DNA from: Acidimicrobiales bacterium
Lineage (GTDB): Bacteria; Actinomycetota; Acidimicrobiia; Acidimicrobiales; Aldehydirespiratoraceae
DNA length: 64,000 nucleotides
NCBI GenBank assembly: GCA_965116665.1
Contig: OZ220709.1
Span: 3,051,486 to 3,115,485, forward strand
Reading direction: 5' to 3'
In this document: one piece after another, positions 1,723-52,492 of the stretch
Layout: every line of letters starts with the position of its first letter
How positions within the stretch are numbered: the stretch's first letter is position 1
Made by a program: the position numbers and the translations under genes
The notes under the pieces: model-generated
What the model was told of the DNA's origin: nothing
Seen by the model: the letters and a program-made list of their open reading frames with translations, nothing else
Database searches by the model: none

Positions 1723-3069
1723 CTACATCCTTGCGGCGAGGGCGGTCTCCCCGTTGACGATCTGCAGGATGTACACCGGCGTGTCGGGCGTGCCGTCGGT
1801 TCCCGCGTAGCCGATCGTGTCGGTGACCGCCTCGACGCCGGTGAGCTGTGAGATCGCTTCGGCGATGGCCAGCGGATCGGTCGAGCCCGCGTCGATGAAG
1901 CCCTGGATGGCCATGGTGATGGCATCGCCGGCGAGCGCCGCGAAGCCCGGCGCCTCGCTGGGCATGCCCTTGGCCGCCAGTCCGTCGTTGAGGCGCTCGT
2001 AGCGGTTGCCGCCGGTGCCGAAGCCGTGGTCGGTCCAGTACACGCCCTCGTTGTTGTCGATGACGGTGATGCCGCTCACCCCGAACGCGTCGGCCCCGAA
2101 GTAGGTGATGGAGTCGACGCCTCGCTCCTCGATGGCGCCCCGCAACGCATCGAGCTGGGGGGCGATCATGGCGGTGTAGAGGATCTCGGTGCCGTCGGCC
2201 ACGCCGACCACCTCGTTGGCGTGGGAGGCGAAGTCGAAGTCCTCGAAGGGCACGTAGCTCACATCGAGCACCAGCTCGCCGCCGAGCTCGGTGAACTTGG
2301 CCGCGAAGGTCTCGGGGTTGTACCCGAAGTACGGGCCCTCCGACGAGAACGTGATGGCCCGGGTGATGCCGGAATCGATGGCGAACTGGGCCGCGGCCTC
2401 GGCCTGCTGGGTGTCGCTGAACGTCGTCATGAACGAGTAGATCGACGGATCCGGCAGCACTGGCTCGGTCGACGCCACGAAGATCACCGCCCGGCTGGCG
2501 TTGACGGTCTGCAGCACCGCGTCGCCGGTGTCGGCGAACGGCGGGCCCAGGATCACATGGGCGCCGGCATCGAGCAGGTCCGCGGTGGCCCGCTGGGACA
2601 CCTCAGGATCGCCCTGGACGTCCTCGATGACGAACTCCACGGGATGCCCGCCGACGCCGCCGGCGCAGTTGATCAGGTCCACGTAGTACTGCCCGGCCTC
2701 CGAGATGGGGATGTCGGCGAAGCCGCCGACCTCGGACAGGTCGGCCGCGAAGCCGATGATGAACGGATCCCCGCTGGGCGCCGGTCCGCAGTTGTCGAGG
2801 TCGGCATCGAGGGCCGCGTCGACGTCGAAGCTCATCATCATGGGCTCTTCGGCGGCCATGGGCTCCTCTTCGGCCATCGGCTCCTCTTCGGCCATCGGCT
2901 CCTCTTCGGCCATGGGTTCCTCTTCGGCCATCGGCTCCTCTTCGGCCATCGGCGCGGCCGTGGTGCTGGCGGCAGGCGCGTCAGCGGTATCGTCCTCGTC
3001 GTCGCCGCAGGCGGCAGCCACCAGGGCCAGCACGGTGAGCGAAACGACGAGCAGCTTGTTCAGTCTCAT
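1723..3069 (-). CDS. ABC substrate-binding lipoprotein (Leu/Ile/Val-binding, type 1 periplasmic-binding fold) with repetitive acidic linker
   Basis: ATG at 3069 is preceded by GGAGGT. Signal peptide plus lipobox MRLNKLLVVSLTVLALVAAAC-GDD, followed by (PMAEEE)x6 and then the binding domain. Confidence 0.85.
   Translation of the reverse strand: MRLNKLLVVSLTVLALVAAACGDDEDDTADAPAASTTAAPMAEEEPMAEEEPMAEEEPMAEEEPMAEEEPMAAEEPMMMSFDVDAALDADLDNCGPAPSGDPFIIGFAADLSEVGGFADIPISEAGQYYVDLINCAGGVGGHPVEFVIEDVQGDPEVSQRATADLLDAGAHVILGPPFADTGDAVLQTVNASRAVIFVASTEPVLPDPSIYSFMTTFSDTQQAEAAAQFAIDSGITRAITFSSEGPYFGYNPETFAAKFTELGGELVLDVSYVPFEDFDFASHANEVVGVADGTEILYTAMIAPQLDALRGAIEERGVDSITYFGADAFGVSGITVIDNNEGVYWTDHGFGTGGNRYERLNDGLAAKGMPSEAPGFAALAGDAITMAIQGFIDAGSTDPLAIAEAISQLTGVEAVTDTIGYAGTDGTPDTPVYILQIVNGETALAARM
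2839..2949. repeat. 18-bp tandem repeat, six units plus a partial unit, in frame
   Basis: Plus-strand unit is cat[c/g]gg[c/t]tcctcttcggc. On the minus strand it encodes AEEEPM/PMAEEE, immediately after the lipobox of the binding protein. Confidence 0.95.
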
Positions 3070-3134
3070 GGGGACCTCCAAAGATCTTGTGGACCATTCC
3101 GACATGTTGTCGGATGAAGGCTTAGCATAATATC

Positions 3135-3150
3135 CGTTTGGTAGCAAACG
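3135..3150. promoter_or_regulatory. Inverted repeat CGTTTG-GTAG-CAAACG, candidate MarR operator
   Basis: Perfect 6-4-6 inverted repeat in the 96-bp divergent region between the binding-protein gene (start 3069) and marR (GTG 3166). Confidence 0.3.
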
Positions 3151-3165
3151 AAATCGGGATCCGTA

Positions 3166-3669
3166 GTGCAGAATCGAGCCGACCCCCGCCTTCTCGACGC
3201 CGAGCGCCTCATCCAGGAGCGCCTCGGCGACCGGCGCCTGGACTTCGACTCGATGCTGGCCGTGTCGAACATCTACCGGGCCGCGACCGCGGTGCGCCGC
3301 CGGGCCGAGAAGGGTGTCCTGTCGGAGTTCGGTCTCTCCTGGGGAGGGTTCACGACGCTGTGGGTCCTGTGGGTCTGGGGCGAGATGCGGTCCGCCGACC
3401 TCGCCGACGAGTGCGACCTCTCGAAGGGGACGCTGACGGGCGTGGTGAAGACGCTGGAGAAGCGGGGCTTCGTCCAACGCAAGCAGGTCGAGGAGGACCG
3501 CCGGAAGGTCACCGTCTCGCTCACCGACGCCGGGCTGGAGGCCATCGAGCAGCTCTTCCCGCTCTTCAACGTTCTTGAGGGCGAGATGGTGGGCGACCTC
3601 TCGACGAGCGAGAAACAGGAGATGGCCGAGCTCCTCCGCCGGGTGATCGTCGCAGCCGGCTCGCCCTGA
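3166..3669 (+). CDS. MarR family transcriptional regulator
   Basis: 167 aa with a winged-HTH core: SWGGFTTLWVLWVWGEMRSADLADECDLSKGTLTGVVKTLEKRGFVQRKQVEEDRRKVTVSLTDAG. Confidence 0.85.
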   Translation: MQNRADPRLLDAERLIQERLGDRRLDFDSMLAVSNIYRAATAVRRRAEKGVLSEFGLSWGGFTTLWVLWVWGEMRSADLADECDLSKGTLTGVVKTLEKRGFVQRKQVEEDRRKVTVSLTDAGLEAIEQLFPLFNVLEGEMVGDLSTSEKQEMAELLRRVIVAAGSP

Positions 3670-6832: not shown

Positions 6833-6917
6833 GGAGCCACCCTAGCTACGTGATGTCCATGCTCAGATGCCGGAGGGAGTCTCGGTTCTCACGTTCGTCA
6901 AACGTTGGCTTGTCACA

Positions 6918-6947
6918 CTCGAATACAAACATATGTTCGTATTCGAG
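6918..6947. promoter_or_regulatory. 30-bp near-perfect palindrome upstream of the methylase (candidate operator)
   Basis: ctcgaatacaaacatatgttcgtattcgag: 14 of 15 symmetric pairs match. It ends 27 nt before the methylase ATG, in a locally AT-richer leader. Confidence 0.5.
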
Positions 6948-6973
6948 GTATCCCCCACACGGAGGGCGACGCG

Positions 6974-8638
6974 ATGCCAAACTGCAACCAAATGACGCTG
7001 ATCGACTGCGAGACAGGTTCACCGGCCGCCGTCATGGACGGGCTGTGCGACGAGCAGGACCTCGCGAGTATTGCTTGGTCGATCATCCGTGACGGCCAGC
7101 TTGCCGAGCTTTCAGAACCCGAGTGCGAACTCGTACAGGCCCTAGAGGTTCCCGGCCACGCTGCTCACGACAGCGGACTGATCGACCTGATCCGCTCGGG
7201 TCAGGACCCTCTGGGCGACGCTCTCATGCACTTGCGCCCACCCGACCAGCGCAGGCCGCTCGGCGCGACCTACACACCTTCCGAGATCGTTTCCTCGATC
7301 GTTACCTGGGTAGCGGCACGGTCAAGGCCAGCCCGCGTTATCGATCCTGGAACAGGCTCGGCCCGGTTCCTGCTGGAAGCTGGTCATGTGCTGCCGGAAG
7401 CCCTGCTGGTCGGGGTGGAGATCGACCCACTCGCCGCACTACTGGCCCGGGCCAACCTCACGGCGGCGGGTCTTGACCATCGGGCGCAGATCCTGGTGCG
7501 AGATTATCGCGACGCTGACTTTGGCGAGTTCAAGAGCACCACCGCCTACATCGGGAATCCGCCCTACGTCCGCCACCACCAGATCGAGCCGGAATGGAAG
7601 GAATGGTTGGCTGCAAGCTCGGCCTCCCTCGGGCTGAAGGCCAGCGGCCTCGCCGGGATGCACGTCCACTTCATGTTGGCCACGGCCCTGCATTCCCGGC
7701 CTGGCGACCTCGGCGCGTTCGTGACCTCGTCAGAGTGGCTCGACGTCAATTACGGCCACCTCCCGAGGATGCTGTTCGCGACCCGGCTAGGCGGAGTCTC
7801 GATCCACCTAGTTGATCCGCATGCCACACCCTTCGCCGACGCAGCAACCACTGCGGCCGTCACCTGCTTTGAGGTAGGCGAGCCTGGTGCGTCGATTCGC
7901 ATGGAGCGGGTCCCGAGCACGTCCGACCTGGGCGTGCTGGACGGCGGGCGGGCTTTCAGCCGACGACAGTTGCGCGCCGCGCCGAGATGGTCAGCGCTGC
8001 TCAACGGCTCCAAGAAGCCACCCGAAGGTTACGTAGAGCTGGGCGAGATCTGTCGTGTGCATCGTGGTGCAGTGACCGGCGCAAACTCCATATGGATCAC
8101 CGACGCTGACGACCCGGCCCTGCCACCGGATGTACTCCTTCCGTCGATCACTCGGGCAGCCGAACTCTTCAACGCTTCGGACGGTGTTCTGTCAAGCACA
8201 CATGGTCTACGGGCCGTGATCGCCCTACCAGCCGACCTCGAAATGTTCGACGAAGCTGACCGACTCCTCATCGACAGGTTCCTTCGGTCTGCCGAGCGAC
8301 GCGGGGTCCGCTCCGGCTACATCGCTCGCAATCGCAACCCCTGGTGGGCTGTGGGCCTTCGGACGCCTGCTCCCATCCTCGCGACCTACATGGCAAGGCG
8401 TCCGCCGGCGTTCGTCCGCAATCTCTCGACGGCCCGCAATGTGAACGTCGTTCACGGCATCTATCCACGCGAGGCCATGTCCGCTACTTCCCTCAATGCA
8501 CTGGCGGCAGCGCTGCGCGCCGCAGCCCCATCTGCGGTTGGACGAACCTACGCCGGCGGCCTCGTCAAGTTCGAGCCGTCCGAAATGGGCCGAATCCCTG
8601 TGCCAGAGCCCGCAGTGCTGGGAGAGATGGCGGCGTGA
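6974..8638 (+). CDS. Type II N6-adenine DNA methyltransferase (gamma class, Eco57I/TaqI-like architecture)
   Basis: 554 aa. Motif X GATYTPSEIV, motif I VIDPGTGSARFLLEA, motif IV GNPPYV, and a C-terminal specificity-type domain. ATG at 6974 is preceded by GGAGGG at 7-nt spacing. Confidence 0.85.
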   Translation: MPNCNQMTLIDCETGSPAAVMDGLCDEQDLASIAWSIIRDGQLAELSEPECELVQALEVPGHAAHDSGLIDLIRSGQDPLGDALMHLRPPDQRRPLGATYTPSEIVSSIVTWVAARSRPARVIDPGTGSARFLLEAGHVLPEALLVGVEIDPLAALLARANLTAAGLDHRAQILVRDYRDADFGEFKSTTAYIGNPPYVRHHQIEPEWKEWLAASSASLGLKASGLAGMHVHFMLATALHSRPGDLGAFVTSSEWLDVNYGHLPRMLFATRLGGVSIHLVDPHATPFADAATTAAVTCFEVGEPGASIRMERVPSTSDLGVLDGGRAFSRRQLRAAPRWSALLNGSKKPPEGYVELGEICRVHRGAVTGANSIWITDADDPALPPDVLLPSITRAAELFNASDGVLSSTHGLRAVIALPADLEMFDEADRLLIDRFLRSAERRGVRSGYIARNRNPWWAVGLRTPAPILATYMARRPPAFVRNLSTARNVNVVHGIYPREAMSATSLNALAAALRAAAPSAVGRTYAGGLVKFEPSEMGRIPVPEPAVLGEMAA

Positions 8639-40125: not shown

Positions 40126-40231
40126 GAGCGGAGCGTAGACCGGGACAATTATTCGAACAAATGGACCCGTGTGGCCCGATGACCTACGGTGACTCAAGTT
40201 GACCGCTCTATCGAGAACAGGATATATCAAC

Positions 40232-41710
40232 ATGGGTGGGAATATCATAGACGATCATGGCTTGTGGTCCGACGATCAGAGAGCCCAGGCGGCCGCGATC
40301 CGATCGCAGATCGAGGCCGACGGGTTGGAGGCGGTCCGGGTGTCGTGGCCCGATCAGCACGGGCTCCTGAGAGGCAAGTCGCTGTCGATCCCCGCCTTCG
40401 AGGCGGCGTTGCGGGGCGGCAGCGAGATCTCGATGGCCCCGTTCTCGCTCGACCCGGCCAACTCGATCGTGTTCAACCCTTTCATGGCCGGAGGCGGCTT
40501 CGGGGTCGACGAGCTGAGCGGGGTTCCCAACGTCACGATGGTGCCCGACCCGTCCACATTCCGGGTCCTGCCCTGGGCCCCGGGGACGGGCTGGATCCTG
40601 GCCGACCTCCACTACCGGGATGGTCGACCGTTCCCCCTGTCGCCAAGGGGGATCCTGAAGGCGTCTCTCGGGCGGCTGGCCGAGCGAGGCTACGGGTACG
40701 TGGCCGGTCTCGAGGTGGAGTGGTATCTCACCAGGATCGTCGACCCGTCTCTCGATCCGGCGGGGCTCGGCGCTCCGGGCATGCCGCCCAACCCGCCGGA
40801 GGTGATGCCGGTGGCCACCGGCTACTCCTACCTGCTCGAGAACCACCTCGACGAGGTGGACCACGTGCTCTCGGTGCTTCGCAGCCACCTGCTCTCGGTC
40901 GGGCTCCCGCTGCGAACGCTCGAGGACGAGTGGGCGCCAAGCCAGATCGAGACGACTTTCGACGTCCTTCGAGGACTGGAACCGGCGGATGCCATGGTGC
41001 TCTTCCGGACAGCGACCAAGCAGATCTGTCGCCGGATGGGCCACCTCGCCTCCTTCATGTGCAAGCCAGCCATCCCCAGCTTCTACCCATCCGGCTGGCA
41101 TCTCCACCAGTCGCTGACGAGTCTCGACACCGGAGAGAACGTCTTCGTCCCCAGCGGTGATGCGCCGCTGTCCGACGTGGGTCGCCACTATGTTGCCGGG
41201 ATCCTGGCCCACGGGTCGGCGGCGTCGAGCTTCACGACGCCGACGGTCAACGGCTACCGGCGCAACCGGCCGTACTCCCTCGCCCCGGACCGGGCAGCGT
41301 GGGCGTTCGACAACCGGGCGGCGATGGTGCGCGTCATCTCCAGCCCCGGGGACCCGGCGAGCCACATCGAGAACCGGGTCGGCGAGCCGGCCGCCAACCC
41401 CTACCTGTACATGGCCAGCCAGATCGAAGCCGGCCTGGCCGGGATCGAGCAGGAACTCGACCCCGGGCCGATGGAGATCGAGCCCTACGCCGCCCAGGTC
41501 GAGCAGCTCCCCACCAACCTGGGCGCTGCCCTGGACGCCCTCGAGAACGACGGCGTCTACCGCTCGGCGTTCGGCGACCAGTTCCTTGACTACTGGCTCA
41601 CGCTCAAGCGCTTCGAGTTCAACCGCTTCGTCGAGGCCAGCGGCGCCGATGCCGTCGACTCCGACGACGTGACCGACTGGGAGCACCGCGAGTACTTCGC
41701 CCTGATGTAA
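40232..41710 (+). CDS. Glutamine synthetase family protein (second GS-like ligase)
   Basis: 492 aa from ATG 40232 (alternative TTG 40199) with VSWPDQHGLLRGKS, EDEWAPSQIETTF, NGYRR and NRAAMVRV...HIENR. Confidence 0.8.
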   Translation: MGGNIIDDHGLWSDDQRAQAAAIRSQIEADGLEAVRVSWPDQHGLLRGKSLSIPAFEAALRGGSEISMAPFSLDPANSIVFNPFMAGGGFGVDELSGVPNVTMVPDPSTFRVLPWAPGTGWILADLHYRDGRPFPLSPRGILKASLGRLAERGYGYVAGLEVEWYLTRIVDPSLDPAGLGAPGMPPNPPEVMPVATGYSYLLENHLDEVDHVLSVLRSHLLSVGLPLRTLEDEWAPSQIETTFDVLRGLEPADAMVLFRTATKQICRRMGHLASFMCKPAIPSFYPSGWHLHQSLTSLDTGENVFVPSGDAPLSDVGRHYVAGILAHGSAASSFTTPTVNGYRRNRPYSLAPDRAAWAFDNRAAMVRVISSPGDPASHIENRVGEPAANPYLYMASQIEAGLAGIEQELDPGPMEIEPYAAQVEQLPTNLGAALDALENDGVYRSAFGDQFLDYWLTLKRFEFNRFVEASGADAVDSDDVTDWEHREYFALM

Positions 41711-41772
41711 GACGGCGGGCGATGTAGTCTGATGGCTAGCGCCAGGAGGGGACCGGCGAGAGGATCAATCCT

Positions 41773-44172
41773 GTGACCACGGTTGCACTGGACAGCAAGA
41801 AACCCACAACCAGCAAGCGATATACAACCGGTAGCGAAGATGAGGTCAAGTCCGTCATCTGCGCGAGCTGCGACGGTTTCTGTCCCGTCTCGGTCAAGGT
41901 CAGGGACGACCGCGTGGTCAAGGTCACCTCACGCGACACGCCGATCCTGGAGGGCGTGCTGTGCATGAAGGGGGCGTATGCACCGAAGTCGTTCGCCCAC
42001 CCGGACCGGCTCATGCGGCCCCTCAAGCGGGTCGGTGAGCGGGGCGGGGGCCAGTGGCAGGAGGTCAGCTGGGACGACGCCCTCGACGACATCGCCGCCC
42101 GCTTGACGGCCGTGGTCGAGCGCTACGGGCCAGAGGCGTTCGCCATGGCCACCTCCGACGCCAACATCGGGCTCGACAACGGGTTGAGCCGGCGGTTCAT
42201 GAACCACCTCGGCTCCCCCAACTGGATCGGCGGTGTCGCCTACTGCATGGGCAACACCGCAGCCGTCAATCGGCTGGTGTACGGCTGGTACCCCCGCAGC
42301 GACCTGGCGCACACAGACTGTATCGTGCTGATGGGCCACGACCCCCGCCGACACAGCTGGACGTTGGAGCACAAGATGATCCGGATGGCCCAGGCGCGGG
42401 GGGCGAAGCTCATCGTCATCGACCCCAGGCGCAGCGGCAACGCCGATCTGGCTGACCTGTGGCTCCCCGTCCGTGCGGGCACCGACACCGCGCTCCTCTT
42501 CGGCTGGCTCAACGTGATCATCGAGGAGGGTCTCTACGACGCCGACTTCGTCCGTGACTGGACCGTCGGCTTCGACCAGTTCGCCGAGAGGATCCGCCAG
42601 TTCCCGGTCTCGCGGGTGGCCGATATCACCGGCCTCGCCCCCGAACTCATCGTCGAGTCTGCTCGCATGTACGCCACCAGCAAGAGCGCCTGCTTCCCGT
42701 GGACGCCGATCACCGACCAGCTGATCAACAGCACCTCGGCCATCCGGCTCCAGTGCTCCCTGCGGGCAATCACCGGCAACCTCGACGCCAAGGGAGGCGA
42801 AGTCTTCGCCGGCTTCAACCCGGCGGTCAGGTCCGACACCGAGATCGAGATGCACGACATGCTCCCGCAGGAGCAGAAGGACAAGCAGCTCGGCGCCCAG
42901 GATCACCCCGCATTCACCTACCGGGCCCAGATGGCTCTGAACGAGCCGACCCTGCGGGTGTGGGGCCACAAGTGGGCGAACCTGGTGAGCGGGTGCTACA
43001 TGGCCAACCCGATGGCAGTGTTCAAGGCCATGGCCGAGGGTGATCCCTACCCCGTGAAGGCGTTCTTCGCGCTGGCCAACAACACCTTGATGTCGTTCGC
43101 CAACACCAAGCGGATCTACGACGGACTCATGGCCCAGGACCTCCTCGTGGCGTACGAGCACGCCATGACTCCCACCGCGCAGATTTCCGACTACGTGCTC
43201 CCGGGAGACTCCTGGCTCGAGCGGCCCGGCTTGCTGGCCGGCATCAGCGAGCAGGCGATGGAACCCCCCGGCGAGTGCAAGAGCGTCGTCTACTTCTGGC
43301 ACGGGTTGGCCCAGCGCATGGGCATGGGTGAGGTGTTCCCGTGGCAGACGGGCGAGGAGTTCCTCGACTATCGAGTCGAGCCGAGCGGTCAGGCCTTTGC
43401 CGACATCGTGGCGGCAGGACGCTTTCCGAGCCCCGACCCCGAGCCGGCACCAGCAAGCACAGAGCGCAAGTACCTGACGACGGGCTTCGCCACCCCGTCG
43501 GGCAAGGTCGAGCTGTACTCGTCCATCTTGGAGGATCTCGGTTTCGATCCGCTTCCCTACTACCGGGAGTCGCCACCGTCCACCGACGAGTACCCGATGC
43601 AGATGTTCATCGGGCTTCCCGACGACGAGTACTACCGCACCGGTCAGCGTCACGTCCCGGAGTTCCGCAAGCGGGCCAAGGACCCGACGCTCTACCTGTC
43701 GGCCGCCGACGCCACTTCGCTCGGTGTCGACGAGGGGGACTGGGCCCGGGTTACGACCTCGATCGGGACCATGGTCGGCCGGGTGTTCATCCGCTCGACC
43801 ATGCCTGACGGCCTCGTCCGGGTCCCCCACGGCTGGTGGAAGCCGGAGTCACGCCGGGGACTGGAGAACATGTCGGGCATGTGGGACTTCTCCGACGCCC
43901 AGCTCACATCGGACGATGACCCCGACTTCATCGACTGGGAGCAGGGCATCCCCCAGTTCAAGGGCGTTCCCTGCAGGATCGACGGGTTGGCCGACGACGA
44001 GGTGGTCCGGCTGGAAGCTGAGTACGGACCGACCGAGCACCTGCCCAAGGGCCCGGAGGGGACCAAGACGCGACCGGTCAAGCTTCCCGAGTTCCTCGAC
44101 GAGCACGAGATGTCCTTCGACGTGGAGTTCGAGGCCGTGGAGCTGTCCATATACGGCCGCATCACTCTCTAG
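41773..44172 (+). CDS. Molybdopterin (Mo-bisPGD) oxidoreductase, DMSO reductase/formate dehydrogenase superfamily
   Basis: 799 aa with an N-terminal 4Fe-4S motif (CASCDGFCPV...LCMKG), then molybdopterin and C-terminal beta-barrel domains. No Tat signal is visible. Confidence 0.85.
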   Translation: MTTVALDSKKPTTSKRYTTGSEDEVKSVICASCDGFCPVSVKVRDDRVVKVTSRDTPILEGVLCMKGAYAPKSFAHPDRLMRPLKRVGERGGGQWQEVSWDDALDDIAARLTAVVERYGPEAFAMATSDANIGLDNGLSRRFMNHLGSPNWIGGVAYCMGNTAAVNRLVYGWYPRSDLAHTDCIVLMGHDPRRHSWTLEHKMIRMAQARGAKLIVIDPRRSGNADLADLWLPVRAGTDTALLFGWLNVIIEEGLYDADFVRDWTVGFDQFAERIRQFPVSRVADITGLAPELIVESARMYATSKSACFPWTPITDQLINSTSAIRLQCSLRAITGNLDAKGGEVFAGFNPAVRSDTEIEMHDMLPQEQKDKQLGAQDHPAFTYRAQMALNEPTLRVWGHKWANLVSGCYMANPMAVFKAMAEGDPYPVKAFFALANNTLMSFANTKRIYDGLMAQDLLVAYEHAMTPTAQISDYVLPGDSWLERPGLLAGISEQAMEPPGECKSVVYFWHGLAQRMGMGEVFPWQTGEEFLDYRVEPSGQAFADIVAAGRFPSPDPEPAPASTERKYLTTGFATPSGKVELYSSILEDLGFDPLPYYRESPPSTDEYPMQMFIGLPDDEYYRTGQRHVPEFRKRAKDPTLYLSAADATSLGVDEGDWARVTTSIGTMVGRVFIRSTMPDGLVRVPHGWWKPESRRGLENMSGMWDFSDAQLTSDDDPDFIDWEQGIPQFKGVPCRIDGLADDEVVRLEAEYGPTEHLPKGPEGTKTRPVKLPEFLDEHEMSFDVEFEAVELSIYGRITL

Positions 44173-44652: not shown

Positions 44653-46875
44653 TCAGATCTTCTCCAGCGGGGCCCACGACAGCAGCAGGCGCTTCTCGCC
44701 GACACTGCCGAAGCGCACCGACGCCTCGGCTTCGTCCCCGGCACCGGCGATGTCGATGATCACGCCCTCCCCCCACTGGGAATGGCGGACATCGTCGCCC
44801 ACCCTGAGGCCGAGACGGTCGGCGCCCGAGGGCGACGGCCTCGCCCGCCGGCCCGCCTCCAGGGCCCGGTCCACGATCTCGTCACGGTTGGCCGAGGCCC
44901 GGTCGAGGCTGCGCTCGCGCCGGCTACGGCTGTAGTAACGGCCGCGCACCACCCGGGAGCCGTCCACCGTCTGCACCAGTTCGTCGGGGATCTCCTTGAG
45001 GAAGCGGCTGGGCGGGTTGTACTGGCGACTGCCGTACAGCAGCCGGCTCCAGGCATGGGTAACGGTCAGCCGCCGCATGGCTCGCGTGATCCCGACGTAG
45101 GCAAGGCGGCGCTCCTCCTCCAGCTCGTGGGGCTCGGTCAGGGCCCGGATGTGGGGGAATACGCCGTCCTCCATGCCGATCATGTACACGTCGGGGTACT
45201 CGAGGCCCTTAGCCGAGTGCAGCGTCATGAGCGTGACCGCGGACTCGTCGGAGCCTGCGTCGGAGAGGTCGTCGGTGTCGGCCACCAGCGCTACCGCCTC
45301 GAGGAAGTCGTCGAGGGTGTCGTGCTCGCCGGCCACGCCCACCAGCTCGGCCAGGTTCTCGAGACGGCCGTCGGCCTCGACGGACTTCTCCGAGCGCAGC
45401 TCGTCGAGGTAACCGGAGCGCTCCAGCAGCTCCTGAAGCACGGCCGCCGGGGATGCCTGCAGGGAGGCGACGTCATCGATCAACGCGCAGAACTGGCCGA
45501 CGCCCGCCGCGGCTCGTCCGGTGACGCCGGCTTCGGCGCAGTGGCGGAGGGCGTCGTAGAAGGTGAGACCCTGCTCGGCGGCATGGGCATCGATCTTGGC
45601 CACCGAGGTGGCGCCCACGCCCCGCTTGGGAACCCCCATGGCCCGCTTCACGCTCACCTCGTCGCCCGGGTTGGTCACCGCCTTGAGGTAGGCCAGGGCG
45701 TCGCGCACCTCCCGGCGGTCATAGAAGCGGGTGCCACCTACCAGCCGGTAGGGCACCTCAGCCTTGATCAGCTGCTCCTCCACCGCTCTCGACTGGGCGT
45801 TGGTGCGGTAGAAGACGGCCATCTCCTCGAAGCGCATCTGCTCCTCGGCACCGCGTCTGACGATCTCACTGACCACGTAGCGGGCCTCGTCGGCCTCGTC
45901 GTCGGCGTGGTAGCGCACGATGGAGGGTCCCGACCCCTGGTCGGTCCAGAGGTCCTTGGGCTTGCGGCCGGCGTTGTTGACGATCACCGAGTTGGCCGCG
46001 TCGAGAATGTTCTGGGTGCTGCGGTAGTTCCGCTCCAGGACCACTATTCGCACGTCGTCGAAGGCCCGCTCGAACTCCAGGATGTTGCGGATGTCGGCGC
46101 CACGGAAGGCATAGATCGACTGATCGGCGTCGCCCACCGCGGTCACCTGGCGGCTCTCGGCGCCCAGGCTGATCACCAGTTCGTTCTGCACCGGATTGGT
46201 GTCCTGGTACTCGTCCACCAGCACATGGGCGAAGCGCTGGCGCCAGCGCTCGAGCACCTCCGGGCAGTTCCGGAACAGCTCGACGGTGCGCAGCAGCAGG
46301 TCGTCGAAGTCCATGGCCGCGGCCGCGGCCAGCCGGCGCTGGTAGTGGCCGAATACCTCGGCTATGCGGCGTTCGTAGATGTTGGAGGCCCGCTCGGCGT
46401 ACTCGGCCGCACCGATGTTGTCGTTCTTGGCCGCGGAGATCGTGGCGTGGATCGACCGGGGCGGGAAGCGCTTGTGGTCAAGGTTGAGGTCGCGCAGCAC
46501 ATAGCCGCACAGGCGTACCGCGTCGCCCTGGTCGTAGATGGTGAACCGGCTCGGGTAGTCGATGTAGGCCGCGTCGCGGCGCAGGATGCGCACGCAGGCG
46601 GCGTGGAACGTCGACACCCACATGCTCTCGGCCACGGGACCGACCAGGTTGCCGACCCGGTGCCGCATCTCGCCCGCGGCCTTGTTTGTGAAGGTGATGG
46701 CCAGGATCTCGAACGGCGACAGGCCGTGGTGATCGATCAGGTGCGCGATGCGGTGGGTGAGCACCCTGGTCTTGCCCGACCCCGCCCCGGCCACCACCAG
46801 CAGCGGCCCGCCGGTGTGGGTGACCGCCTCGAGCTGGGCCGTGTTGAGGTCCTCCAGAATCGCCGATTCCGCCAT
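44653..46875 (-). CDS. pcrA: ATP-dependent DNA helicase PcrA/UvrD
   Basis: 740 aa with AGAGSGKT, ITFTNKAA, VDEYQDTN and TLHSAKGLEY. Confidence 0.95.
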   Translation of the reverse strand: MAESAILEDLNTAQLEAVTHTGGPLLVVAGAGSGKTRVLTHRIAHLIDHHGLSPFEILAITFTNKAAGEMRHRVGNLVGPVAESMWVSTFHAACVRILRRDAAYIDYPSRFTIYDQGDAVRLCGYVLRDLNLDHKRFPPRSIHATISAAKNDNIGAAEYAERASNIYERRIAEVFGHYQRRLAAAAAMDFDDLLLRTVELFRNCPEVLERWRQRFAHVLVDEYQDTNPVQNELVISLGAESRQVTAVGDADQSIYAFRGADIRNILEFERAFDDVRIVVLERNYRSTQNILDAANSVIVNNAGRKPKDLWTDQGSGPSIVRYHADDEADEARYVVSEIVRRGAEEQMRFEEMAVFYRTNAQSRAVEEQLIKAEVPYRLVGGTRFYDRREVRDALAYLKAVTNPGDEVSVKRAMGVPKRGVGATSVAKIDAHAAEQGLTFYDALRHCAEAGVTGRAAAGVGQFCALIDDVASLQASPAAVLQELLERSGYLDELRSEKSVEADGRLENLAELVGVAGEHDTLDDFLEAVALVADTDDLSDAGSDESAVTLMTLHSAKGLEYPDVYMIGMEDGVFPHIRALTEPHELEEERRLAYVGITRAMRRLTVTHAWSRLLYGSRQYNPPSRFLKEIPDELVQTVDGSRVVRGRYYSRSRRERSLDRASANRDEIVDRALEAGRRARPSPSGADRLGLRVGDDVRHSQWGEGVIIDIAGAGDEAEASVRFGSVGEKRLLLSWAPLEKI

Positions 46876-46934
46876 CGCGGCTCACCCTACTGCCGCCCGC
46901 TGCCGCCCCTCACCGACGGGGTGGTCGTCAGCTG

Positions 46935-48083
46935 CTAGGCGGGTTCGGGGTCGTCCGAGAGCACGTCCAGGAACGGTGAGTACCGGTAGACGCGGTCGCG
47001 CCTGCGGCCGGTTATCTCCTCGACGATTCCCTCGGAAGCCAGCGCGTCGAGCAGGCGGCCGACGGTCACTGGCGTCGAGCCGAGGGCGGTCGAGGCGTAC
47101 TTGATGGTAACGATGGGCTGCACGGCCAGCAGGTCGAGCAGCGGCCATGCGTACTTGCCGAGCTTCTGATCGGTCGCGATCTGTCGATGCTCGTCGGTAA
47201 GTGCCAACAGCTCGGCCGCCGCCCGCACTGCGTCGTCAGCAGTGGCGGCCACGCCGGTTAGGAAGAACTTGAGCCAGCCCTCCCAGTCACCCTGGACCCT
47301 GATGGCGTTGAGCCGGTCGTAGTACTCGCTGCGGTTCTGTTTGAGGAACACGCTCAGGTACAGCAACGGCCGGACCAGCACCCGCCGCTGGACCAGCAGC
47401 AGCGTGATAAGGAGGCGCCCGACACGGCCGTTGCCGTCGAGGAACGGGTGGATCGTCTCGAACTGGGCATGGGCCAGCCCTGCGAGCACCAGCGGAGGCG
47501 TGTCGCTGTCGTTGAGGAAGAGTTCGAAGTCGCGGATCGCTCCGCCGAGGTCGTCGGGCGACGGTGGGACGAACGCCGCGGTCGCCAACGTGCAGCCTGC
47601 CGGACCGATCCAGTTCTGGGTTCTGCGAAACTCGCCGGGGCTGCGCTCCTGGCCCCGCACGCCCGTCATCAGCTCGCTGTGCAGCCGGCGGATCAAGCGG
47701 CCCGACAAGGGCAGTTCGTCCAGCAGGCTCAGGCCCACCCGCATGGCCCGCACGTAGTTCACGGTTTCGGCGATGTCGTCGGGCGGAGCGGCCACCCGGG
47801 CCTCCACCTCGTGGGCCAGCATGTCGTCGAGGCTCGACTGGGTGCCCTCGATCTGGGAGCTGAGCACCGCCTCGCGCCGAACGTAGGACGCCACAAACAG
47901 GTCGGGGTTCGGGAGGCTGCTCGCCATCCCGTCCAGGCGGCCCAGCGCCACCGTGGCGTCCGACAACAGCCCGACCAGGCCAGTATCCCACCGCAGCGGC
48001 GGGTCGGGCGGAAGCGGCTTGGGCACGAACGCCTCGTAACCGCTGAGCTGCGGACGGAAGCGCCCGGCGCGGGTGGATTGCAT
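46935..48083 (-). CDS. fic: Fic family protein (Fic_N + Fido + C-terminal winged HTH), class II with cis inhibitory helix
   Basis: 382 aa from ATG 48083. Active-site motif HPFLDGNGRVGR, inhibitory motif SSQIEG (S-x-x-x-E-G), and a C-terminal wHTH. Confidence 0.9.
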   Translation of the reverse strand: MQSTRAGRFRPQLSGYEAFVPKPLPPDPPLRWDTGLVGLLSDATVALGRLDGMASSLPNPDLFVASYVRREAVLSSQIEGTQSSLDDMLAHEVEARVAAPPDDIAETVNYVRAMRVGLSLLDELPLSGRLIRRLHSELMTGVRGQERSPGEFRRTQNWIGPAGCTLATAAFVPPSPDDLGGAIRDFELFLNDSDTPPLVLAGLAHAQFETIHPFLDGNGRVGRLLITLLLVQRRVLVRPLLYLSVFLKQNRSEYYDRLNAIRVQGDWEGWLKFFLTGVAATADDAVRAAAELLALTDEHRQIATDQKLGKYAWPLLDLLAVQPIVTIKYASTALGSTPVTVGRLLDALASEGIVEEITGRRRDRVYRYSPFLDVLSDDPEPA

Positions 48084-48115
48084 CGGTCCTTCCTTCTCCT
48101 TGCCGCTGAATAACC

Positions 48116-48299
48116 GGCCGCTATTCGAGCCCACTAAAATAGCGAAGCCCGATTCAGCAAGTTATTTTAACAAATGCAAGATTGATAAAACAACGTCGCT
48201 GAAACGGGGCCGCTATTCGAGCCCACTAAAATAGCGAAGCCCGATTCAGCAAGTTATTTCAACAATGGCAGATTGCTGAAATAATATCGCTGAAACGAG
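48116..48299. repeat. 92-bp AT-rich tandem repeat, two copies
   Basis: Units begin at 48116 and 48208 (ggccgctattcgagcccactaaaatagcgaagcccgattcagcaagttattt...). The first 51 nt of each unit read identical and the rest is diverged. Positions 48161-48200 count 12/40 G+C. Confidence 0.9.
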
Positions 48300-48325
48300 C
48301 AGCCGGGGGGAGCGCTGCGACAACC

Positions 48326-49738
48326 GTGCCCGGTAGCCTGCCGGGCGTGGAGGTCGCCGACTCCGTCCTCGACCTCATAGGGAACACGCCGCTGGTGCGG
48401 ATGCGGCGGGCGGTTCCCGAGGCCGGCTGTGAGCTGGTGGCCAAACTGGAGATGCTCAACCCGGGCGGCAGCGTCAAGGACCGCATCGCCATGACGATGA
48501 TCGACGCCGCCGAGCGCGACGGGCTGCTCGGTCCGGGCGGGACGATCATCGAGCCCACCTCGGGCAACACCGGTGTCGGCCTCGCCATGGTGGCCGCCCA
48601 GCGGGGCTACCGGTGCATCTTCGTGATGACCGACAAGGTGAGCACCGAGAAGGTGCGGCTGCTACGGGCCTACGGCGCCGAGGTGGTGGTGTGCCCGGTG
48701 GCGGTCGCCCCCGACGACCCCGACTCCTACTACTCCACTGCCGAGCGGCTCATGCGTTCCACGCCGGGCGCCTACCAGCCCAACCAGTACTTCAACCAGG
48801 CCAACCCGCTGGCCCACGAGCAGACCACCGGACCCGAGCTGTGGCGCCAGACCGGCGGGCGCATCACCCACTTCGTGGCCGGTGCGGGCACCGGCGGGAC
48901 CCTCAGCGGCGTGGGCCGGTACCTCAAAGGACAGAACCCCGCGGTGCAGGTGATCGCGGCCGACCCCGAGGGCTCGGTGTTCAGCGGCGGCTCGGGACGC
49001 CCCTACCTGGTGGAGGGCATCGGCGAGGACTTCTGGCCCGAGACCTACTACCCGGAGCTGGTGGACAGGGTCATAGCGGTGTCCGACCAGGCGTCCTTCG
49101 ACATGGCCCGGCTGGTCTCGCACCGCGAGGGCCTCCTGATCGGCGGCTCGGGCGGAACCGCGGTGTGCGCGGCCGCGGAGGTGGCTTCGGACTGCGGCCC
49201 TGATGCGGTGGTCGTGGTGCTGCTGCCCGACTCCGGGCGCGGCTACCTCTCCAAGGTGTTCGACGATGACTGGATGGCGACGCACGGGTTCCTGATCGGT
49301 GAGCATCCGTGCGTCAAGGACGTGCTCGACGCCAAGGAGGACGCCCTGCCGCCGCTGGTGTACGTCAACCCCACCGACCCGGTGAGCCTGGCCGTGACCC
49401 GCATGCGGGACAACGGGCTGAGCCAGCTGCCGGTGGCCAAGGGCGAGATGCCGCTGGCCGCGGCCGAGGTGATGGGCGCGGTGCACGAGCTGCAGCTCAT
49501 GGCCCTGGCCTTCGACGGTGACCTGCTGGGCCAGCCGGTGGAGAACGTGATGAGCAGACCGCTGGAGCAGATCGGGATCGGCGAGTCGGTGGCGCTGGCG
49601 GTGACCAGGCTGGAGCGGTCGCCGGCTCTGCTCGTGCTGGACGGGGGCAGGCCTCGGGCGGTGGTCTCCAGCACCGATGTGCTCAGCTACCTGTCGTCCA
49701 ACGCCGACGGCGGGCTCTCGCAGGGACAGCTGCTGTGA
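48326..49738 (+). CDS. cbs: Cystathionine beta-synthase (PLP fold type II + tandem CBS domains)
   Basis: 470 aa with NPGGSVKDR (PLP lysine), SGNTG and GTGGT, and a C-terminal CBS pair. Confidence 0.9.
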   Translation: MPGSLPGVEVADSVLDLIGNTPLVRMRRAVPEAGCELVAKLEMLNPGGSVKDRIAMTMIDAAERDGLLGPGGTIIEPTSGNTGVGLAMVAAQRGYRCIFVMTDKVSTEKVRLLRAYGAEVVVCPVAVAPDDPDSYYSTAERLMRSTPGAYQPNQYFNQANPLAHEQTTGPELWRQTGGRITHFVAGAGTGGTLSGVGRYLKGQNPAVQVIAADPEGSVFSGGSGRPYLVEGIGEDFWPETYYPELVDRVIAVSDQASFDMARLVSHREGLLIGGSGGTAVCAAAEVASDCGPDAVVVVLLPDSGRGYLSKVFDDDWMATHGFLIGEHPCVKDVLDAKEDALPPLVYVNPTDPVSLAVTRMRDNGLSQLPVAKGEMPLAAAEVMGAVHELQLMALAFDGDLLGQPVENVMSRPLEQIGIGESVALAVTRLERSPALLVLDGGRPRAVVSSTDVLSYLSSNADGGLSQGQLL

Positions 49739-50877
49739 GCAAGAGCACCTGGGGATTCGAGACCCGGGCCATCCATGCCGGCCAGGAACCCGACGAGGCC
49801 ACCGGAGCGATCACCGTTCCCATCCATCTGGCCACCACCTTCGTGCAGCCGGCGCCGGGACAGCACCGGGGCTACGAGTACTCGCGCACGTCGAACCCGA
49901 CCCGGGCCGCGCTGGAGTGCAGCGTGGCCGGGCTCGAAGGCGCCGCCCACGGGTTCGCGTTCGCCAGCGGCATGGCCGCCGAGAACGCCCTGGTGGGCCT
50001 GCTGCGCCCCGGCGACCACGTCGTGCTCGGCGACGACGCCTACGGCGGGACCTTCCGGCTGATCGCCCGCGTCTACGGCGAGCGGGGGATCGAGTGGTCG
50101 GCGGTGGACCTGACCGACGCAGGCGCCCTGGCCGCCGCCCTGCGCCCCGAGACCCGCCAGGTGTGGATGGAGACCCCCACCAACCCCATGCTGACCGTGG
50201 TCGACATCGCGGCCACAGCCGGCGCGGCCCACTCGGTCGGGGCCCGCCTGGTGGTGGACAACACCTTCGCCACCCCGTACCTGCAGAACCCGCTGGGCTT
50301 GGGCGCCGACGTCGCGGTCCACTCCTCCACCAAGTACCTGGGCGGGCACTCCGACGTGGTGGGCGGCTTCATCGCGGTCGACGACGACGGGCTGGCCGAG
50401 CAGCTGGCCTTCGTGCAGAACGCGGCCGGAGCGGTTCCCAGCCCGTTCGACTGCTACCTGCTGCTGCGGGGCATCAAGACGCTGGGTGTGCGGATGGACC
50501 GCCACTGCGACAACGCGGCGGAGGTCGCCGCCTACCTCGACGACCACCCCGCGGTGGACCGGGTGCTGTACCCGGGGCTGGCTGACCATCCGGGCCATCG
50601 GATCGCGACCCGCCAGATGAGCGGGTTCGGCGGGATGGTGTCGTGCGTGCTGGCCGGCGGGGAGGCGGCCGCGGTGGCCGCGGTCAGCTCGACCCGGGTG
50701 TTCCAGCTGGCCGAGTCGCTGGGAGCGGTGGAATCGCTGATCGAGCAGCCCTCCACCATGACCCACCTCTCGGTGGCCGACTCGCCCCTGGCCGTCGACC
50801 CCGGGCTGATCCGCCTGTCGGTGGGCATCGAGTCCATCGACGACCTGCTCGCCGACCTCGACCAGGCCCTGCGCTAG
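49735..50877 (+). CDS. metB: Cystathionine gamma-synthase/gamma-lyase family PLP enzyme
   Basis: 380 aa with YSRTSNPT and STKYLGGHSDVVGG (PLP lysine). GTG overlaps the cbs stop (GTGA). Confidence 0.9.
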   Translation: MSKSTWGFETRAIHAGQEPDEATGAITVPIHLATTFVQPAPGQHRGYEYSRTSNPTRAALECSVAGLEGAAHGFAFASGMAAENALVGLLRPGDHVVLGDDAYGGTFRLIARVYGERGIEWSAVDLTDAGALAAALRPETRQVWMETPTNPMLTVVDIAATAGAAHSVGARLVVDNTFATPYLQNPLGLGADVAVHSSTKYLGGHSDVVGGFIAVDDDGLAEQLAFVQNAAGAVPSPFDCYLLLRGIKTLGVRMDRHCDNAAEVAAYLDDHPAVDRVLYPGLADHPGHRIATRQMSGFGGMVSCVLAGGEAAAVAAVSSTRVFQLAESLGAVESLIEQPSTMTHLSVADSPLAVDPGLIRLSVGIESIDDLLADLDQALR

Positions 50878-50902
50878 AACTCCCGGCCAGGCCCGGCCCG
50901 GA

Positions 50903-52492
50903 TCACTCCCACTCGATGGTGGCCGGGGGTTTGGAGGTGATGTCGTAGGCCACCCGGTTCACGCCACCGACCTCGGCGATCACCCGGCTGCTCATGGCCT
51001 CGAGCACCTCGTGGGGCAGCCGGGCCCAGTCGGCGGTCATGGCGTCGGAGCTGGTGACGGCCCGGATCACGACCGGGCGCCCGTAGGTGCGCTCGTCGCC
51101 CATCACCCCGACGGTGCGGATGTCGGGCAGCACCGCGAACGACTGCCAGATCTCGCGCTCCAGGCCGGCCTTGCGCAGTTCGTCGCGGACGATGGCGTCG
51201 GCCTGGCGGAGGGTGGCGGCCGCGGCGGGGGTCACCTCGCCGATGATGCGCACGGCCAGGCCGGGGCCGGGGAAGGGCTGGCGGTGCACGATCTCGTCGG
51301 GAAGGCCCAGCTCGGCGCCCACCGCCCGCACCTCGTCCTTGAACAGCGACCGCAGCGGCTCGACCAGCTCGAAGTCGAGGTCCTCGGGCAGCCCGCCCAC
51401 GTTGTGGTGGCTCTTGATGGTGGACGAGTGGGTGGTGGCGCCCGACTCGATCACATCGGGATAGAGGGTCCCCTGCACCAGGAAGCCGGCGTCGGGAGCA
51501 TGGCGGCGGGCCCGCTCGAAGGCTCGGATGAACTGCTCGCCCACCACCTTGCGCTTGGCCTCGGGCTCGGTGACGCCCTCCAACGCGGCGAAGAACTCGG
51601 CCGCCGCGTCGAGGCGCACCAGATCCACCCCGAAGTGGCGGCCGAACGTCTCCTCCACCTGGTCGGCCTCGCCCTCGCGCAGCAGGCCGGTGTCGACCAG
51701 CACGCACGTCAGCCGGTCGCCGATGGCCCGGTGCACCAGGGCTGCGGCCACCGCCGAGTCCACACCCCCCGACAGCCCGCAGATGGCGCGGCCCTCGCCG
51801 ACCTGGTCGCGGACTGAGGCCACCGAGGCGTCGATGATCGAGTGCATGGACCAGCTCGGGCCGGCGTCACACGCTTGGCGCAGGAAGCGCTCGATCACCT
51901 GCAGTCCGTGGGGCGTGTGCTGCACCTCGGGATGGAACTGCACGCCGTAGAGGCCGCGGCCGGGGTCCTCGAACGCGGCCACCGGCGATGCCGCGGTGGA
52001 CGCGGTGACGGTCGCACCCGGCGGCGGGTCGACGATGGCGTCGAAGTGGCTCATCCACACCGGCTGCGACGCCGGCAGACCCGACAGCAGCGTCCCGGCG
52101 TCGTCGTGGGCCACAGTCATCTCGGCCCGGCCGTACTCGCCCCGCTCGTTGGGGCCGACCGAGCCGCCGAGCTGCTCGGCGATGAGCTGCGCGCCGTAGC
52201 AGATGCCCAGGATCGGCACCCCCAGCCCGTAGATCCCGGCGTCGAGGCTGGGCGCGCCCGCCACGTGCACCGAGGCCGGGCCCCCGCTGAGGATCACGCC
52301 GGCCGGCCGGCGGTCGGCGATCTCGGCCGCGGTGATCGTCGACGGCACGATCTCGCTGTACACCTGGCACTCTCGCACCCGCCGGGCGATCAACTGCGCG
52401 TACTGGGCACCGAAGTCGACCACCAGCACGGTGTCGAACCCGCCGCCCGGGCCCGCCGGGGCCCGGTCCACTATCGCGGCCGCGCCGGCCAC
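50903..52492 (-). CDS. guaA: GMP synthase (glutamine-hydrolysing)
   Basis: 529 aa with the GATase domain (GICYGAQ), the PP-loop SGGVDS and the C-terminal PPATIEWE. Confidence 0.95.

Follow-up and report, generated by a model that had tools for sequence, protein, structure and literature searches.

Between the divergent genes fic and cbs of this Acidimicrobiales genome lies an intergenic region of 242 bp, 184 bp of which are taken up by an AT-rich tandem repeat, and the question that the locus raises is what this repeat does there. We analysed it within the whole stretch of 64 kb in which it lies (hereafter, the window) and compared it with the DNA around fic genes of close and distant relatives. 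The reading that we favour, at a probability of about 0.8, is that the 92-bp repeat would act as a duplicated operator array for the autoregulation of Fic. It is the best-supported one on several grounds taken from sequence and structure prediction: the anatomy of the repeat, a conserved box and layout upstream of fic, the linkage between box and fic, the winged helix-turn-helix (wHTH) fold of the protein and the precedent set by CccR and SoFic.

Repeat finding within the window returned two head-to-tail units of 92 nt at 48116-48207 and 48208-48299. Copies starting at 48116 and 48208 bear out what an earlier, sequence-only reading of this DNA had described. That reading had also stated that the first 51 nt of the units are identical and the rest is diverged; the divergence stands (the remainder is ~76% identical and contains a 1-nt indel), and the length of the identity has to be corrected to 52 nt. 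Unit A (48116-48207) is proximal and unit B (48208-48299) distal to fic, the latter adjoining cbs; both were delimited by sequence, repeat search and alignment, are oriented on the minus strand, and consist of one module made of a long and a short dyad. Tandem Repeats Finder did not list the 92-bp array, probably on account of the indel and a copy number of only two. The G+C content of the region from 48100 to 48300 is 0.42-0.46 (44% overall) compared with ~0.70 in the flanks, and a direct count over 48161-48200 gave the same 12 of 40 G+C as had been noted before. Other islands of reduced G+C (0.47-0.51) were seen in the window at 3041-3180, 6841-7000, 40141-40280, and 41761-41860, none of them with a paired Fic half-site.

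The units are built from an 8-bp half-site, TTRTTYYA, which occurs four times per unit in alternating orientation. A long dyad (8+16+8), a linker of 19 bp, a short dyad (8+6+8), and again 19 bp add up to the 92 bp of a module, which explains the repeat period; the spacer is 15-16 bp in the long dyads and 6 bp in the short ones. From the cbs side to the fic side, the half-site centres lie at 48280.5, 48257.5, 48230.5, 48216.5, 48189.5, 48165.5, 48138.5, and 48124.5, and a ninth one, read directly, at 48109.5. Long dyad B (48254-48284) reads TTATTTCA-N15-TGAAATAA in the fic sense, and in this genome its palindrome runs through the spacer. Long dyad A (48162-48193) reads TTGTTTTA-N16-TAAAATAA in the same sense and can also be written TTATTTTA-N16-TAAAACAA. 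The two short dyads, B at 48213-48234 and A at 48121-48142, both read CTATTTTA-GTGGGC-TCGAATAG. The centres of long dyads A and B are 94 and 185 nt upstream of the fic ATG, respectively, and, measured from the centre of long dyad A, the half-sites of short dyad A lie 39 and 53 nt further downstream, offsets that are kept at other loci. The ninth, unpaired half-site (TTATTCAG in the fic sense; 48106-48113, minus strand) lies just upstream of the fic ribosome-binding site and, judging from its letters, is the start of a truncated third unit.

This anatomy accounts for the inverted repeats reported earlier. GCTATT-12 nt-AATAGC is indeed present in both units (48120-48143 and 48212-48235) and contains the short dyad, that is, a short-spacer dyad made of the same TTRTTYYA half-site as the long one. 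TCAGCAA-20 nt-TTGCTGA was likewise found in unit B, where it overlaps the long dyad, the true half-sites being different. What the sequence-only reading had overlooked were the long dyads themselves (TTATTTCA-N15-TGAAATAA and TTATTTTA-N16-TAAAACAA), the half-site that the short dyads share with them, and the ninth half-site. The elements are confined to this place: the window contains four perfect half-sites, all inside the 92-bp repeat; no second copy of the 92-bp unit or of the half-site pairs was found elsewhere in the 64 kb; and a search for the GCTATT..AATAGC 24-mer tolerating up to 3 mismatches returned no further copy in the window and none in shuffled sequences.

The gene next to unit A, fic (46935-48083, minus strand, ATG at 48083), encodes a class II Fic protein of 382 aa with Fic_N, Fic, and C-terminal wHTH domains, as assigned from Pfam (Fic_N, 1e-27; Fic, 3e-19), homology, and a structural model. 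A ribosome-binding site, GGAGAAGGAAGG (48088-48099, minus strand), precedes the ATG by 4 nt, and the translation contains the class II inhibitory motif SSQIEG and the catalytic motif HPFLDGNGRVGR. Homology searches gave full-length matches to SoFic, to the FIC protein of Mycobacterium marinum, and to 7cb8. The AlphaFold2 model (mean pLDDT 79) shows a canonical wHTH (H-b-H-H-wing) at residues 312-367, with residues 338-350 as the predicted recognition helix, and its best Foldseek matches were SoFic (TM 0.78-0.81) and 7cb8, followed by the FIC-domain protein 7xux, which we tentatively take to be CccR, and CbFic2. Downstream of fic, after 59 nt and on the same strand, lies the helicase gene pcrA/uvrD (44653-46875, minus strand). 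Given this short gap, the shared strand, and the pairing of the two genes in relatives, fic and pcrA may be co-transcribed as one autoregulated unit. In the opposite direction, cbs (48326-49738, plus strand; PALP and CBS domains) is divergent from fic, and metB, a gene for a Cys/Met PLP enzyme, is oriented as cbs. A G+C-rich inverted repeat (window 48317-48357; arms of 20 nt, 75% complementary and 1 nt apart) spans the annotated GTG start of cbs at 48326, and the true start is uncertain because a second in-frame GTG occurs at 48347.

A strict sigma-70 promoter scan of the repeat region returned no promoter, and a terminator scan gave a single chance-level match, inside the fic start. Candidate promoters with weak consensus matches only can nevertheless be drawn within the dyads. 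A putative fic promoter would lie inside long dyad A (48164-48193, minus strand), with TTGTTT at 48193-48188, 18 nt ending in TGT, and TAAAAT at 48169-48164. The promoter of cbs must lie in or beside unit B, and a candidate that overlaps long dyad B was found at 48259-48287 on the plus strand (TCAACA at 48259-48264, 17 nt, TAATAT at 48282-48287).

This genome belongs to a lineage of Acidimicrobiia near Candidatus Aldehydirespirator. The order fic-pcrA is kept in six related loci, in which PcrA is ~91% and Fic only 79-95% identical. In comparisons with L002, L003, L006, and L007, Fic was only 79-84% identical, as against ~91% for PcrA and 89-93% for CBS, so that Fic evolves noticeably faster than its syntenic neighbours. 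The divergent gene opposite fic is cbs in the window, L001, and L006, and a luciferase-like gene in L002-L004; in L007 it is probably also a luciferase-like gene, judging from near-identical upstream sequence. Whichever the divergent neighbour, the AT-rich array stays beside fic in all close relatives. Maps of the half-sites showed long-27-short modules with a period of 92-98 bp upstream of fic, with one copy in L005, L009, and L012, two in the window, L001, L002, L003, and L007, and three in L006.

When the two units of the window were aligned with the two of L001, position-specific variants common to both genomes emerged, indicating that the duplication is older than the split between these lineages; the 52 identical nt of the window could then reflect either conservation or later homogenisation. 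The age of the duplication and the fic-pcrA synteny together imply that fic is no recent insertion and that the repeat is not its scar. Length changes of other kinds were also seen in relatives. In L005 (2170-2510), the fic regulatory module and approximately the first 40 nt of the coding sequence (ATGACAAGCGAACGAGCC...) occur a second time, ~200 bp ahead of the real start; here the same hotspot has undergone a larger tandem duplication. L003 and L004, which are near-identical and come from one sample, differ in a (CT)n tract in the linker between modules (L004:3905-3925 versus L003:3905-3915) that is expanded in L004, a microsatellite-type length variation inside the operator region.

For more distant homologues, a scan of genomes, one for each species, yielded 80 loci with SoFic-like fic genes, spread over many phyla. 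The nearest relative among them has a Fic only 83% identical, and hence the source species is absent from the returned loci. Long dyad A matches a box, TTATTTTA-N16-TAAAATAA, that precedes fic by 62-99 nt, in intact form, in a deltaproteobacterium and in Bacteroidota, Desulfobacteraceae, Obscuribacterales, Gaiellaceae, and Acidobacteriota. Identity among the Fic proteins of these loci is only 59-74%, and the spacer and flanks of the box are unconserved. The layout recurs in other fic clades with half-sites of a different sequence, for instance TGAATATG..CCATATTCA and TTGACAAG..TTTGTCAA, and with GTTAACATGG..CCATGTTAAC at the fic locus of an archaeal MAG.

We counted dyads with 9-nt arms, at most one mismatch, and a spacer of 14-18 at positions -170 to -21, and found one at 43 of 82 fic loci, compared with 7.25 for dinucleotide-shuffled sequences and 8 for coding controls; perfect dyads numbered 16 against 0.4 expected. 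At the 29 loci with a clean long dyad, additional half-sites are concentrated at -52, -38, +38, and +52 relative to its centre, in the orientations expected for flanking short dyads. Long dyad A of the window has the same flanking offsets, plus one more long dyad upstream. A large branch of the Fic family appears to have kept this long/short dyad layout. Across the 80 genome loci, fic is the only gene in common, and no second conserved neighbour that could encode an alternative binder was detected besides alternative frames of fic itself.

Some of these loci showed further features. An HsdM-like ORF, by the look of its N-terminus a type I restriction-modification methylase, lies beside fic in 7 of the 80 loci (for example L041:1-2350), which hints that some SoFic-like genes may sit in defence islands. 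Arrays of short and long dyads with the same box were also seen downstream of fic or before another gene (L087:8660-8760, L163:8040-8260, and L129:4530-4580); in L163, a long-short-long-long array precedes fic and a long-short-long array precedes the next ORF (MTKSSTLTDLIGYHE...). These arrays at second genes possibly represent a small Fic regulon or copied operator cassettes.

The linkage between box and fic was also apparent when the search was run in reverse. A metagenome scan for exact CTTATTTTA-N16-TAAAATAAG returned at least 124 matches in at least 120 stretches. Among the matches listed, 40 of 124 preceded the start of a SoFic-like fic gene by no more than 260 nt, mostly by 50-90 nt, and 16 more were at contig ends. 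Among the ORFs starting beside these listed boxes, Fic was the sole recurrent family, with 40 members, the next cluster having 3 and the singletons numbering 70. The movement of the box together with fic from host to host suggests that fic itself encodes the binder. About two thirds of the exact matches listed do not adjoin fic; these may be chance occurrences in AT-rich DNA, sites of a regulon, or sites of another factor. We also looked at the predicted recognition helix. Across the 80 genome loci, a helix motif, [YF]VTA, was associated with the TTATTTTA box (Fisher, 2e-10); in an independent check, only 4 of 33 fic genes chosen by the box carried the motif. This indicates that the covariation between helix and box is confounded by phylogeny and cannot identify the binder, and we dropped it as evidence for Fic binding.

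From these observations we infer Fic binding and repression, together with the promoter positions and any effect on cbs, in the following form. The proposed binder of the array is the Fic product of the adjacent gene, dimers of which would occupy the dyads. Since the centres of the half-sites are 24 bp apart in the long and 14 bp apart in the short dyads, the difference of 10 bp would place them on the same face of the helix. Long dyad A would double as the weak -35/-10 pair for fic, and its occupancy by Fic would exclude RNA polymerase and result in negative autoregulation; the co-oriented pcrA would probably be repressed together with fic. Long dyad B would overlap the only plausible promoter of the divergent cbs-metB genes, and through this overlap, with its weak hexamers, the second module may extend control to cbs-metB.

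The reading as an operator array, which the sequence-only reading had put first, possibly for the Fic wHTH, is supported by the conserved dyads upstream of fic, the recovery of fic in the reverse search, and the SoFic-like wHTH, and it has to be weighed against other functions of the same DNA. The repeat might encode a structured RNA, either a tandem cis-leader of fic with hairpins in its 5' UTR or a pair of small RNAs, the latter having also been suggested before. Two hairpins are indeed predicted per unit, one short and one long (z-scores, -4.6 to -5.7), G-U pairs make the fold of the fic-sense strand the more stable one (-35 to -37 kcal/mol), the changes between the window and L001 preserve the pairing of the long hairpin, and a fic promoter in long dyad A would leave short dyad A transcribed and able to form a 5'-UTR hairpin. 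However, palindromic operators in general fold well in silico, and the half-site sequence itself is conserved across phyla, whereas covariation is what one would expect of an RNA stem. The 16-nt spacer of other lineages lacks self-complementarity (0.35 of positions versus a chance level of 0.25), so that an 8-bp A/U stem closing a loop of 16 nt would be all that remains, and G.T versus A.C mismatches occur without clear strand bias (28:16 and 28:22). No Rfam family was matched in a permissive search of 47800-48600, which gave only sub-threshold chance matches to microRNAs and snoRNAs (best, 20.9 bits versus a gathering threshold of 90), and a strict scan found no promoter/terminator pair bracketing a small transcript. 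On the grounds of non-complementary spacers, the lack of a clear strand bias, and conserved half-sites we rejected an RNA hairpin as the primary function, and we give an RNA of either kind only a slim chance; as a secondary effect, short dyad A might still act as a 5'-UTR hairpin.

An AT-rich island could, on the other hand, be bound by a host factor other than Fic, such as an Lsr2-type nucleoid protein or an unlinked regulator of cbs-metB or fic. A tract of 44% G+C in a genome of 70% G+C would suit AT-binding nucleoid proteins, the helix-box covariation that had pointed to Fic failed its independent test, and many of the metagenome matches listed lie away from fic. Against such a factor, the same box travels with fic across unrelated phyla, different fic clades have different boxes in the same layout, as fits a binder encoded at a locus where fic is the only shared gene, and the array remains with fic when the divergent neighbour switches from cbs to the luciferase-like gene; moreover, self-binding has been published for CccR and SoFic. 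Its chance seems to us slimmer still. Least probable of all is that the repeat has no function, being a product of slippage or unequal crossing-over, or that it was left behind, as a scar or terminal repeat, by a mobile element that brought fic in. The 52 identical nt shared by the copies, and the rearrangements of this region in L005 and L004, would be in keeping with such an origin. But the variants shared with L001 put the duplication before the split of the lineages, relatives repeatedly show arrays of one to three modules whose half-sites are intact, fic and pcrA have stayed syntenic (PcrA, 91% identical), and no other unit or half-site pair occurs in the 64 kb. No transposase or integrase was found among the ORFs listed for 45500-51000, and signs of a MITE, REP, or insertion-type element are missing too, with no dispersed copies in the window and the array at the same place in all close relatives. 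The insertion scar and the small RNA gene pair, both raised by the sequence-only reading, are thus not borne out.

A wider reading goes beyond autoregulation at this locus. SoFic-like class II Fic genes across bacteria, and in at least one archaeal MAG, might share a so far undescribed cis-regulatory architecture, in which half-sites alternate and short (N~6) and long (N~16) dyads recur at +/-12, +/-38, and +/-52 bp. The array would expand by modules of ~92 bp and could be copied before other genes, and it might nucleate a higher-order assembly of Fic on DNA, serve as an allosteric platform, and couple Fic to cbs-metB. We regard this as a tentative proposal, and a rather unlikely one when taken in full. 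For the enzyme, the suggestion that the array may also set its activity comes from CbFic2, in which DNA binding drives dimerisation and AMPylation, and from SoFic, whose AMPylation needs the dimer; for this genome, the occupancy of Fic could be coupled to the cbs-metB transsulfuration genes.

In a full-text literature search we found no published description of a conserved operator layout in the wHTH Fic family. Our comparison supplies a concrete and testable box for a large branch of this family, made of long and short dyads of TTRTTYYA half-sites with fixed offsets, that moves with the gene between phyla in modules numbering from one to three or more. In this genome it predicts autoregulation of fic-pcrA and possibly co-regulation of cysteine/methionine transsulfuration genes. 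For annotation, an AT-rich tandem repeat of this type would be an ordinary regulatory element and not the scar of a mobile element or an RNA gene. Defined probes are at hand for assays of binding, stoichiometry, and DNA-dependent AMPylation.

Winged-helix Fic AMP-transferases are widespread and, to our knowledge, CccR is the only one of them with a mapped operator. This protein (YPK_0951) of Yersinia pseudotuberculosis represses, as a dimer, its own promoter at inverted repeats 26 bp apart near the -35/-10 region, as established by footprinting, EMSA, ITC, and reporters (PMC9755527). Like the window Fic, it is a class II enzyme with an N-terminal inhibitory helix and a C-terminal HTH, and has inverted repeats with a long spacer in its own promoter. 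The layouts differ, however: CccR has one palindrome with 10-bp arms and a 26-bp spacer, whereas the window has nine 8-bp half-sites in N15-16 and N6 dyads and a duplicated 92-bp module. In structure, 7xux is more distant from the window Fic than SoFic (TM ~0.55), and CccR is a T6SS effector, while nothing of that kind was seen beside the window fic.

SoFic of Shewanella oneidensis (SO_4266, mloA; PDB 3EQX, 3ZCN) is the closest solved fold, with a TM of 0.78-0.81 over the full length including the wHTH, and a protein identity of only ~25%. Binding to the 100 bp directly upstream of the SoFic gene was seen with the dimer and not with a monomeric mutant, and the operator was left undefined by the authors (bioRxiv 10.64898/2026.07.09.737422). 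What SoFic has in common with the proposed system is specific binding to an AT-rich region upstream of its own gene. In our own reading of the published probe, there are several 8-bp ATGTCGAT half-sites in both orientations, arranged as divergent N21-22 pairs and an N3 palindrome; with a different half-site and different spacings, the probe carries neither the TTRTTYYA box nor the spacings of the window, and we rejected it as a carrier of the box. CbFic2 of Coxiella burnetii has the same DUF4172/Fic_N, Fic, and wHTH architecture as the window Fic and is a weaker fold match (8cil, TM ~0.57). In this protein, DNA binding induces dimerisation and switches on AMPylation, and only non-specific DNA binding has been reported, with no operator known (PMC10628234). 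By analogy with this DNA-switched AMPylation, the operator array possibly controls the activity of the window enzyme as well as its expression.

Plasmid iterons and the operators of type II toxin-antitoxin systems resemble the array in having repeated short sites in AT-rich DNA beside the gene of the binder, here a proposed one, and they too give autoregulation. Iterons, however, are direct repeats beside a rep gene and an origin, whereas the window has inverted dyads of alternating half-sites, and their neighbours fic, pcrA, cbs, and metB stand in conserved chromosomal synteny. The word iteron, used in the sequence-only reading, is therefore the wrong one, because the dyads are inverted and lie beside no replication gene. 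Type II toxin-antitoxin systems have a separate antitoxin gene, and the window has none because the inhibitory helix belongs to Fic itself. On the reading that we favour, the feature would belong with the self-operators known for winged-helix Fic enzymes, and its layout differs from that of the one mapped example.
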